Assembly (NCBI RefSeq): GCF_988242995.1 | Contig: NZ_OZ547043.1 | Direction: 5' to 3' (one strand) | DNA: 64,000 bases | Shown here: positions 52,827 through 54,783 of the stretch, one piece after another | How positions within the stretch are numbered: position 1 is the first letter of the stretch | Layout of the letters: every line of letters starts with the position of its first letter | Notes under the pieces: model-generated | Databases searched by the model: none | The model's input: the letters and a program-made list of their open reading frames with translations, nothing else | Told to the model about the DNA's origin: nothing | Position numbers and translations under genes: made by a program

Positions 52827-53360
52827 ATGAAAACGCGTATTCATGTTGTGCAGGGTGATATTACCAAACTGGCCGTTGATGTGATTGTGAATGCGGCTAA
52901 TCCGTCATTAATGGGAGGCGGCGGCGTCGATGGGGCCATTCATCGCGCAGCGGGTCCGGCTCTGCTGGATGCCTGTTTAAAAGTCAGGCAACAGCAGGGC
53001 GATTGCCCTACGGGGCATGCCGTTATTACGCTTGCAGGCGATCTTCCCGCTAAAGCCGTAGTGCACACCGTCGGGCCAGTCTGGCGTGGTGGTGAACAAA
53101 ACGAAGACCAGCTTTTGCAGGATGCCTATCTCAATAGTCTGCGACTGGTGGCGGCAAACAGCTATACGTCAGTGGCATTTCCTGCAATCAGTACTGGGGT
53201 TTATGGTTACCCTCGTGCGGCAGCGGCTGAAATCGCAGTAAAAACCGTTTCAGAATTTATTACCCGTCACGCTTTACCCGAACAGGTATACTTTGTCTGT
53301 TATGATGAAGAAAACACCCACCTCTACGAAAGACTCCTTACCCAACAAGGAGATGAATGA
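52827..53360 (+). CDS. ymdB: macrodomain O-acetyl-ADP-ribose deacetylase YmdB
   Basis: 177 aa, macro-domain motifs ([18 protein letters not shown]). Confidence 0.9.
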
Positions 53361-53361
53361 T

Positions 53362-54783
53362 TTGCCCCGGCTGGCGAGCGCGGTGCTGCCACTGTGTTCG
53401 CAACATCCCGGTCAGTGTGGCCTTTTCCCTCTGGAGAAAAGTCTGGATGCGTTTGCCGCCCGGTATCGTCTGGCCGAAATGGCAGAGCATACGCTGGATG
53501 TTCAGTATTACATCTGGCAGGACGATATGTCGGGTCGGTTACTGTTTTCCGCCCTGTTAGCCGCAGCAAAGCGTGGCGTTCGCGTCCGTTTGTTGCTGGA
53601 CGACAACAATACACCCGGACTTGACGACATTTTACGCTTGCTTGACAGTCATCCCCGCATTGAAGTCCGGCTTTTTAATCCTTTCTCGTTTCGCTTGCTA
53701 CGTCCGCTTGGTTATATCACCGACTTTTCCCGTCTCAATCGCCGTATGCACAATAAAAGTTTCACTGTTGATGGCGTGGTGACGCTGGTAGGGGGGCGAA
53801 ATATTGGTGATGCCTATTTTGGGGCAGGGGAAGAGCCACTTTTTTCGGATTTAGATGTCATGGCAATAGGACCAGTTGTAGAGGACGTTGCCGATGATTT
53901 CGCCCGCTACTGGTATTGCAAATCGGTTTCACCCTTACAGCAGGTGCTGGATGTCCCGGAAGGTGAAATGGCGGATCGCATCGAGTTACCAGCATCCTGG
54001 CACAACGATGCCATGACGCATCGTTATTTACGCAAAATGGAATCCAGCCCGTTTATAAATCATCTGGTTGATGGAACGTTGCCGCTTATCTGGGCGAAAA
54101 CACGTTTATTAAGTGATGATCCGGCGAAAGGGGAAGGCAAGGCAAAACGGCATTCACTGTTACCGCAGCGCCTGTTCGATATCATGGGCTCACCCAGTGA
54201 ACGCATCGATATTATCTCTTCCTATTTTGTACCGACACGCGCAGGTGTGGCGCAACTCTTACGGATGGTGAGAAAAGGGGTAAAGATTGCGATCCTAACC
54301 AATTCTCTTGCCGCTAACGATGTTGCTGTCGTCCATGCCGGATACGCACGCTGGCGCAAAAAATTGCTCCGCTACGGCGTGGAATTATATGAACTCAAGC
54401 CGACGCGTGAACAAAGTAGTACGTTACACGATCGCGGCATAACCGGTAATTCCGGTGCCAGCCTGCATGCTAAAACCTTTAGCATCGATGGTAAAACGGT
54501 GTTTATCGGCTCTTTCAATTTCGATCCGCGTTCAACATTGCTCAATACTGAAATGGGCTTCGTGATAGAGAGCGAAACGCTGGCACAGTTAATTGATAAA
54601 CGCTTTATTCAGAGCCAGTATGATGCGGCCTGGCAGCTCCGTCTGGACAGGTGGGGACGGATCAACTGGGTTGATCGTCATGCAAAGAAAGAGATTGTTC
54701 TCAAAAAAGAACCCGCCACCAGTTTCTGGAAGCGGGTTATGGTCAGACTGGCGTCGATATTGCCTGTGGAATGGTTATTGTAA
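53362..54783 (+). CDS. clsC: cardiolipin synthase C (phospholipase D family)
   Basis: 473 aa if initiated at TTG 53362 (MPRLASAV); alternative ATG at 53353; two HxK(x4)D motifs (HNKSFTVD, HAKTFSID). Confidence 0.82.
   Translation: MPRLASAVLPLCSQHPGQCGLFPLEKSLDAFAARYRLAEMAEHTLDVQYYIWQDDMSGRLLFSALLAAAKRGVRVRLLLDDNNTPGLDDILRLLDSHPRIEVRLFNPFSFRLLRPLGYITDFSRLNRRMHNKSFTVDGVVTLVGGRNIGDAYFGAGEEPLFSDLDVMAIGPVVEDVADDFARYWYCKSVSPLQQVLDVPEGEMADRIELPASWHNDAMTHRYLRKMESSPFINHLVDGTLPLIWAKTRLLSDDPAKGEGKAKRHSLLPQRLFDIMGSPSERIDIISSYFVPTRAGVAQLLRMVRKGVKIAILTNSLAANDVAVVHAGYARWRKKLLRYGVELYELKPTREQSSTLHDRGITGNSGASLHAKTFSIDGKTVFIGSFNFDPRSTLLNTEMGFVIESETLAQLIDKRFIQSQYDAAWQLRLDRWGRINWVDRHAKKEIVLKKEPATSFWKRVMVRLASILPVEWLL

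Follow-up and report, generated by a model that had tools for sequence, protein, structure and literature searches.

Two candidate starts for clsC, one of them inside ymdB, in Escherichia coli

The gene clsC has two plausible translation starts at its junction with ymdB. On balance we favour the reading in which the conserved start is a pair of ATG codons at positions 53302 and 53305, inside ymdB, and the TTG at 53362, just past the ymdB stop, contributes at most a second, coupled start. The junction lies in a window of 64,000 nucleotides (contig NZ_OZ547043.1 of RefSeq assembly GCF_988242995.1), and its start is an annotation question, not a new biological feature; the TTG itself is real. The anatomy of the junction, the conflict between its annotations and the comparative signals are direct observations, and the last of these point to a conserved clsC start inside ymdB.

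The ymdB-clsC junction and its annotations

The upstream gene, ymdB (52827..53360, + strand), encodes a 177-residue O-acetyl-ADP-ribose deacetylase with a macro domain and ends in a TGA at 53358-53360; its product matches NCBIfam NF001660 over residues 1-177 of 177, as well as Pfam Macro, and its annotation is the same in K-12 and PGAP. The following gene has been given two forms on the same strand: a long form that begins at the PGAP start (53302..54783, 493 aa, 55.9 kDa) and shares 59 nt with ymdB in the +1 frame, and a short K-12 form (53362..54783, 473 aa, 53.65 kDa). Two Pfam PLDc_2 stretches and a PLDc active-site motif identify the product as a ClsC-type cardiolipin synthase, and over 2.2 kb the region matches ETEC1738, in which the gene carries the name clsC, at 100% identity and K-12-derived strains at 98.2%.

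The original prediction placed the start at the TTG (53362..53364, +), the curated K-12 start, and the layout that it described is present. A single base (T 53361) separates the TTG from the ymdB TGA, and translation from it yields 473 residues beginning (M)PRLASAV. An in-frame ATG that it noted 9 nt upstream inside ymdB is likewise there (53353..53355, +, across the codons for Asp176-Glu177) and would give a 476-aa form, an unlikely one. That ATG was taken to be the sole rival, which overlooked the pair at 53302/53305 that PGAP uses and that tetracycline ribosome profiling (TetRP) flagged. The clsC frame is open from 53293, and both the ORF list and the sequence hold TTG 53293, ATG 53302 and ATG 53305 as in-frame candidates. 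All three fall within a conserved block, GTATACTTTGTCTGTTATGATGAAGAAAAC (53286..53315, +; ymdB codons Val154-Asn163), which we propose as the clsC translation-initiation region, with the ATG-ATG pair (53302..53307, +) lying within ymdB Tyr159-Asp160-Glu161 as candidate conserved starts. TTG 53362 therefore does not belong with those TTG starts that have no better upstream candidate in their open frame, as three in-frame candidates precede it with no stop between.

Signals for ribosome binding are distributed unevenly over these codons. An SD-like AAGGAG (53347..53352, +), formed by ymdB Gln-Gly-Asp codons, stands 9 nt before TTG 53362 and 5 nt before the ymdB TGA, and its anti-SD duplex (-8.5 kcal/mol) is the best among all start candidates; pairing at ATG 53302 is poor (-3.8 kcal/mol, with AGGT 14 nt upstream). 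The same AAGGAG is predicted to be masked in an RNA hairpin, CUCCUU-ACCCAAC-AAGGAG (53334..53352, +), in which CUCCUU (53334-53339) pairs with AAGGAG (53347-53352); the predicted fold energy over 53330-53356 is -6.2 kcal/mol (z -2.4). The arrangement AGGAG-N5-10-TTG occurs 7 times in the window against 8.9 +/- 3.5 expected, that is, no more rarely than by chance, so that only its position here, in frame and just past the ymdB stop, is notable. The junction gave no Rfam match and hence no known RNA element, and no internal sigma-70 promoter was found in ymdB.

The annotations disagree over nearly identical DNA. In K-12 MG1655, clsC (b1046, NP_415564.2; 1106355..1107776) is a 473-aa gene that begins at a TTG two bases past the ymdB end; its junction is identical to that of the window except for A/G at 53316, and its start corresponds to window position 53362. 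EcoCyc-type annotation follows this form, as does the lipid literature, which gives ClsC a mass of 53,666 Da. In contrast, RefSeq/PGAP starts clsC at ATG 53302 (493 aa; for example WP_001305893.1, with its ATG 59 nt inside ymdB) in all seven of the other E. coli genomes sampled, one of which is identical to the window over 52700-54900. TTG 53362 is present in 8/8 E. coli sequences compared. The curated start clashes both with PGAP and with the comparative signals. The PGAP call is algorithmic and silent on additional use of the TTG, and the TetRP signal falls on the second ATG, 53305. NCBIfam holds no ClsC-specific model that would show a curated N-terminus.

Two further non-ATG starts were called correctly by the original prediction, and E. 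coli uses such starts routinely (GTG at about 14%, TTG at about 3%). The gene torS (10284..13028, - strand, 914 aa) begins at GTG 13028, at the same distance from the torT start, 83 nt, that separates the two in K-12 (torS at 1053434..1056178), and gnsA (8917..9090, +, 57 aa) begins at GTG 8917 within the 3' end of ymcE (8697..8927), overlapping it by 11 nt with a GAGG 6 nt upstream. Both starts are identical in K-12, PGAP and the window, and need no action.

Constraint on the overlap among related species

From a Tyr/Phe codon to the end of ymdB, no stop interrupts the clsC frame in 20 of 20 species, where simulations based on each species' protein sequence and codon usage predict 7.7; the species are phylogenetically related, and multiplied probabilities therefore overstate the significance. 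A control simulation on seven other ymdB segments was well calibrated (65 open frames observed and 59.8 expected, of 140). Even in the clade with starts near the ymdB stop, the chance of an open frame is 0.2-0.3 each for E. coli, C. sedlakii and the C. youngae group. At Leu171, which precedes a Thr, ymdB uses CTT or CTC only, and each of the four other leucine codons (CTG, CTA, TTA and TTG) would introduce a clsC-frame stop.

Constraint at the nucleotide level is concentrated on the proposed initiation region. Across 21 species, codons 154-163 show the minimum synonymous diversity in ymdB (0.25-0.28 vs 0.55), and TAC155 (18/18), TAT159 (14/14) and GAA162 (21/21) are invariant. At least one ATG occupies the position of the pair in all 20 species with an intact frame, which we do not count as evidence because an ATG in a Tyr-Asp-Glu motif is likely by chance (0.7-0.99 per species). 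Downstream of the block the ymdB tail shows normal synonymous variation (0.56), and most E. coli SNPs in this tail change the amino acid in the clsC frame, which together indicate that the extension peptide is barely constrained. The junction combines three features of an out-of-frame overlapping gene pair, namely an open frame with a start codon inside ymdB, stop depletion and nucleotide constraint at the embedded start codon.

Two genera retain the block where ymdB does not run through it intact. In Phytobacter it persists as a relic about 100 nt beyond an intact ymdB (ATG ACA ATA AAA ATG CCC, in the clsC frame), with an in-frame TGA three codons upstream, and in Intestinirhabdus it is kept even though two thirds of ymdB has been lost. 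The TGA in Phytobacter falls at the place of TTG 53293, which has an AGGT 5 nt upstream, and we rejected that codon as the conserved start.

Protein lengths agree with a start in the block. Counted from the upstream ATG, ClsC is uniformly 493-497 aa, and relatives with unambiguous starts have 484-490 aa; judged by these sequences, a 473-aa ClsC would be a length outlier. The original prediction regarded MPRLASAV as the conserved ClsC N-terminus, which the alignment of orthologues contradicts, as residues are invariant only from Arg-Leu onward. The first predicted helix begins with these residues, which are Arg23-Leu24 of the 493-aa form, and no clsC start further downstream is therefore possible. 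In the AlphaFold model residues 1-18 are disordered and the first helix runs from residue 23, which does not tell the starts apart. Local RNA folding in 20 species is least structured 13-28 nt downstream of the upstream ATG (z +1.9), with TTG 53362 in moderately open RNA; we give this profile little weight because the local codons are AT-rich for protein reasons.

Initiation at the ATG pair and its alternatives

Published initiation data bear directly on the choice. In the tetracycline ribosome profiling of Nakahigashi et al. 2016 (PMC4909307), row 99 of Table S2 lists ymdC, which is clsC, and gives it an alternative ATG at -57, corresponding to window position 53305, with read depths of 0/30.1/16.1 at this ATG vs 0/0/5.7 at the TTG. 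The authors remained undecided on the signal because the site lies within the coding region of the upstream gene, and ymdC and surE are the two genes that they left so (PMC4909307). The supplements of TRAINSPOTTER, a Salmonella riboproteogenomics paper and Giess 2017 contain no entry for clsC, ymdC, torS or gnsA, and no N-terminal peptide data for ClsC were found in those three. The peptides EMNDLPR, DSLPNK and TPTSTK belong to the long form only, and the short form has the N-terminus (M)PR/LASAVLPLCSQHPGQCGLFPLEK.

As to the start that E. coli ribosomes use, and the ratio between starts, we infer the following arrangement. Initiation would take place at the ATG pair 53302/53305, in the +1 frame across ymdB Tyr159-Asp160-Glu161, making the clsC/ymdB overlap 56-59 nt and producing a ClsC of 492/493 aa whose first ~20 residues would be a hydrophilic and disordered tail of poor conservation. 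The TTG at 53362 is a feature of the Escherichia/Citrobacter lineage and would add at most a second start dependent on ymdB translation: ribosomes completing ymdB would open the hairpin over AAGGAG and so give rise to the 473-aa form.

The main competitor, which we regard as unlikely while taking it seriously, holds that clsC in E. coli starts only or overwhelmingly at TTG 53362, by restart after the ymdB TGA, and that the upstream open frame is a leftover. In its favour are the curated K-12 start, the strongest SD pairing at 9-nt spacing, and the placing of that SD under a hairpin, predicted at -6.2 kcal/mol, from which translation of ymdB would free it, a classic coupling layout; moreover, every predicted structured element falls within the 473-aa form, and pBAD-clsC is active in a ymdB-less strain. 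NTG codons right past the ymdB stop are also recurrent in two clades, with stop-N-NTG as the first post-stop clsC codon in C. sedlakii (TTG), four Citrobacter (ATG), and Cedecea and two Buttiauxella (GTG/TTG). C. werkmanii bears on both readings: its ATGA overlap, with an ATG where E. coli has the TTG and the frame closed upstream, favours the competitor, and that the sole species with a broken clsC frame (a 2-nt deletion) is also the sole one without an upstream ATG favours the ATG pair. Against this, the TTG looks like a drifting Leu codon. It is TTA in E. albertii, which also has GGC for GGA and in which clsC is still intact and under purifying selection (160 synonymous vs 30 nonsynonymous codon differences), and CTG in Salmonella. 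An NTG just past the stop, or an ATGA overlap, is found in 10 of the species examined but is missing from E. albertii, Salmonella and 11 others. Eight species (Salmonella, Lelliottia, Leclercia, Superficieibacter, Enterobacter ENT03, Siccibacter, Intestinirhabdus and 'C. freundii M-21') lack any ATG, GTG or TTG in the stretch that runs from the ATGs within ymdB to the first invariant residues of ClsC, and in four more the sole candidate is a GTG, 6-7 codons upstream; a broad protein search returned mostly fragments, the Salmonella locus being its sole useful product. The frame that would be a leftover stays open even in the near-stop-start clade at the chances given above, the TetRP depth at the TTG is lower than at ATG -57, the SD-plus-TTG motif occurs at chance frequency, and GGA for the relevant Gly is also found in species without a nearby start. 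The prediction that clsC initiates at this TTG thus retains the curated start and the best SD, while the conserved start appears to lie inside ymdB.

Coupling at the TTG, which the original prediction proposed from the juxtaposition, fares similarly. Classical coupled pairs with a juxtaposed stop and start include trpE-trpD, trpB-trpA and galT-galK. Like these, ymdB and clsC share a strand and are separated by a 1-nt spacer, with the SD in the upstream gene under a predicted hairpin; unlike them, the juxtaposed clsC start is a weak TTG that is not conserved across genera, and the juxtaposition itself is not conserved among orthologous pairs. The literature describes ymdAB-clsC as a single operon, a further likeness to the coupled pairs.

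Two other readings involve the same few nucleotides. ATG initiates far more strongly than TTG, and a start at ATG 53353 (476 aa, MNDLPR...) could be reached by short backward scanning from the ymdB stop, which lies 5 nt away and within the reported reinitiation range; this ATG is, besides, kept in E. albertii, where the TTG is lost. We hold it improbable all the same, for the codon stands 0 nt from AAGGAG, which is incompatible with SD-led initiation, is ACG in C. sedlakii and has no match at the corresponding position in other genera, and is a by-product of the ymdB GAT-GAA codons; it features in no annotation and is not a TetRP candidate position. A YmdB-ClsC fusion made by prfB-like programmed +1 frameshifting near the ymdB end strikes us as scarcely credible. 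It would account for a clsC frame that is +1 to ymdB and kept open through the tail, for AAGGAG 5 nt before the TGA, and for a Macro+PLDc fusion protein in the database (P0004), which most likely comes from a frameshifted assembly. It lacks a slippery codon: neither GAA-TGA in E. coli nor GCC-TGA in Salmonella allows re-pairing in +1, and a site of this kind is not conserved. There is no Rfam element, and in Phytobacter and Intestinirhabdus the block persists with no complete ymdB leading into it.

Annotation of clsC and the effect of ymdB

At present the same DNA is filed as 473 aa in K-12 and UniProt-style entries and as 493 aa in thousands of RefSeq genomes, and at most one of the two can be the full story, so that the importance of initiation at the ATG pair is mainly for annotation. 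There is also a possible consequence for experiments. Including the adjacent ymdB in clsC clones raises their yield of ClsC, 'by an unknown mechanism' (PMC8027125), and the title of a 2024 paper describes the ymdB product as dispensable for ClsC substrate specificity. We raise only tentatively the stronger proposal that the K-12/UniProt start is wrong or incomplete, that the true initiation region lies in ymdB, and that the effect of ymdB is exerted in cis. If it is true, ymdB-bearing clones would bring with them the native start and 5' coding sequence of clsC, and the YmdB protein would not have to act. Should the native clsC start lie inside ymdB, this simple explanation in cis becomes testable.

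Candidate starts at the ymdB-clsC junction

The window is E. coli chromosome: over 2.2 kb around the ymdB-clsC junction it shares 100% identity with strain ETEC1738, and of the 5,423 E. coli genomes in the collection with a match, 5,010 show 95–99% identity. On the plus strand, ymdB (52827–53360) ends in a TGA at 53358–53360 and, after a single T at 53361, TTG 53362 opens a clsC (ymdC) frame of 473 codons running to 54783; 9 nt 5' of this TTG, a Shine-Dalgarno-like AAGGAG (53347–53352) abuts an in-frame ATG at 53353. The original prediction, which placed initiation at the TTG, described stop, TTG and the ATG 9 nt upstream accurately, but omitted three further plus-strand candidates (TTG 53293, ATG 53302 and ATG 53305) in the clsC frame, which is +1 relative to ymdB and open from 53293. 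The five candidate starts give products of 496, 493, 492, 476 and 473 aa (56.2 to 53.65 kDa). Over 95 nt the junction is near-invariant, with identity of 95% or more in every one of the 5,423 genomes; TTG 53362, ATG 53353 and AAGGAG are retained in 8 of 8 E. coli sequences compared. As the window holds seven matches to the motif AGGAG-N5-10-TTG, with 8.9 expected, only the placement of this match is worth noting.

Exact identity to the window over 53286–53380 is found in only 187 of the 5,423 genomes; position 53316 is A (YmdB Thr164) here and G (Ala) in K-12 and most strains. In E. coli NCTC11151 the CCCC run after the TTG (window 53365–53368; fetched locus L088, 776–792) reads CCC, which may be a homopolymer sequencing error, and clsC is marked frameshifted by the RefSeq pipeline PGAP.

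Both the TTG start and a start embedded in ymdB already stand in public annotations. The curated K-12 record (b1046, NP_415564.2) begins clsC at the TTG, two bases past the end of ymdB, whereas PGAP begins it at the counterpart of ATG 53302, 59 nt within ymdB, a call it makes in all seven other E. coli genomes opened, one of them marked frameshifted. The prediction of a TTG start thus repeats one of two annotations and, on comparative grounds, appears the less likely of them to be the whole truth. Its GTG starts for torS (13028; 914 aa) and gnsA (8917; 11-nt overlap with ymcE) agree with both K-12 and PGAP. torS and torT are divergent, with just 82 nt between start codons (13026–13113); the torS GTG has no obvious Shine-Dalgarno sequence, and initiation instead at ATG 12998, in frame and ten codons further on, would drop two arginines before the first hydrophobic segment. 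gnsA, which PGAP names a GnsA/GnsB family addiction module toxin, lies in a chain of small overlapping genes 3' of cspG (8534–9090), in which K-12 ymcF and ymcE overlap by 26 nt and ymcE and gnsA by 11 nt.

Conservation of the proposed embedded start

We compared 80 fetched clsC loci and one Salmonella contig. At the ymdB stop, C. sedlakii reads TGA-G-TTG and four Citrobacter read TGA-T-ATG; Cedecea and one Buttiauxella metagenome-assembled genome carry TGA-C-GTG, and B. izardii TAA-T-TTG, each five codons further upstream. The codon matching TTG 53362 is CTG in Salmonella and TTA in E. albertii, where GGC also replaces GGA and clsC is intact and under purifying selection (relative to the window, 160 codons differ synonymously and 30 nonsynonymously). 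In eight species (Salmonella, Lelliottia, Leclercia, Superficieibacter, Enterobacter ENT03, Siccibacter, Intestinirhabdus and "C. freundii M-21"), the stretch from the ymdB-internal ATGs to the conserved ClsC core contains no ATG, GTG or TTG, and in four more the sole nearby candidate is a GTG 6–7 codons upstream. A start further downstream is excluded because the first predicted helix begins with Arg23-Leu24 (493-aa numbering), the earliest invariant residues.

The ymdB sequence around the embedded ATGs is itself constrained, to the extent that species as related as these can reveal: mean synonymous codon diversity of ymdB is 0.55 in 21 species, and the lowest window of the entire gene (0.25–0.28) is the block of codons 154–163 around the ATG. 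This block holds three of the gene's only five near-invariant codons (TAC155, 18/18; TAT159, 14/14; GAA162, 21/21). From the Tyr/Phe codon to the end of ymdB the clsC frame is stop-free in 20 of 20 species, against 7.7 expected when synonymous codons are resampled from each species' own usage (0.2–0.34 per species for most). The control was well calibrated: seven other ymdB segments gave 65 open frames of 140, with 59.8 expected. Much of the signal comes from Leu171, which precedes Thr and is encoded only by CTT or CTC; with the common CTG, a TGA would arise in the clsC frame. Since diversity 3' of the block is normal (0.56) and most E. coli SNPs in that stretch leave YmdB unchanged and alter an amino acid in the clsC frame, the start region and open frame are conserved and the amino-acid sequence of the tail is not. 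In the AlphaFold model, ClsC residues 1–18 are disordered (pLDDT below 50) and the first helix begins at residue 23. With the upstream ATG, ClsC measures 493–497 aa; relatives with unambiguous starts measure 484–490 aa. Three distant relatives (database proteins P0050, P0054 and P0067) carry a hydrophobic, membrane-anchor-like segment of 40–50 residues before the core, so the N-terminus of the family is very variable.

Three loci serve as natural experiments. In Phytobacter massiliensis, ymdB is intact with its own C-terminus, and about 100 nt beyond it the 3' end of a second ymdB persists as a relic directly 5' of clsC (L021:1317–1500). The relic's ymdB frame has decayed (IYLSCYDNKNARRIDLAFR*), a 38-nt block retains 82% identity to that of a relative, and its clsC frame reads ATG ACA ATA AAA ATG CCC, which suggests that ymdB was replaced or duplicated and the clsC 5' region kept. 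A TGA three codons upstream closes this frame, ruling out the TTG 53293 position as a conserved start. In Intestinirhabdus alba the 5' two thirds of ymdB are gone, and the gene therefore appears a remnant; its last ~65 codons (L013:1296–1493) keep the ATG and open clsC frame, with no other start. In C. werkmanii, loss of 2 nt from the ymdB tail (L008:1480–1505) alters the YmdB C-terminus (…QGDNNGLI*), breaks the clsC frame with in-frame stops upstream, and creates an ATGA overlap; this is the only species examined without the upstream ATG, and it has an ATG at the TTG position.

Weighing the candidate starts

Table S2 of Nakahigashi et al. 2016 (PMC4909307), a study by tetracycline-inhibited ribosome profiling, gives ymdC an alternative ATG start at −57, which, counted from TTG 53362, is exactly ATG 53305. 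Read depth was 0/30.1/16.1 there versus 0/0/5.7 at the annotated start, a signal that, like that of surE, its authors could not judge real or not because the coding region of the upstream gene, which is strongly expressed, covers the site. In the published data searched, no further initiation-profiling record and no N-terminal peptide evidence was found for clsC. The ClsC mass quoted in the lipid literature, 53,666 Da, is that of the 473-aa form.

That TTG 53362 is the only significant start seems unlikely to us, given the TTA at this position in E. albertii, whose clsC is intact, even though it has the K-12 annotation and an AAGGAG 9 nt upstream. Initiation at ATG 53353, retained in the eight E. 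coli sequences compared, is improbable, as this ATG abuts AAGGAG with no spacing and is ACG in C. sedlakii. Production of ClsC as a frameshift fusion we regard as very improbable. In one database protein, P0004 (272 aa), the macro domain of YmdB continues via the overlap region into the N-terminus of ClsC, which most likely reflects a frameshift or an error in the assembly.

At 53334–53352, the inverted repeat CTCCTT...AAGGAG, with perfectly matching 6-bp arms, is predicted to pair AAGGAG with CUCCUU at 53334–53339 (−6.2 kcal/mol, z −2.4); the sequence of its 5' arm is that of the 16S anti-Shine-Dalgarno core. In the mRNA this hairpin would mask the Shine-Dalgarno sequence of TTG 53362, and a ribosome completing ymdB would open it, which fits the coupled TTG use originally suggested. 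The most stable predicted local structure of the region lies 20–30 nt 3' of the TTG (~53375–53410; −18 to −19.5 kcal/mol per 39 nt in E. coli, mean z −1.4 in 20 species), followed by a terminator-like stem and T-rich tail at 53410–53432. The lipid literature also reports that clones with adjacent ymdB yield more ClsC, "by an unknown mechanism" (PMC8027125).

On balance, and with the weak Shine-Dalgarno sequence of the upstream ATG as a limit, we favor the reading that the conserved ATG inside ymdB functions as a clsC start in E. coli, whether or not the TTG is used as well.
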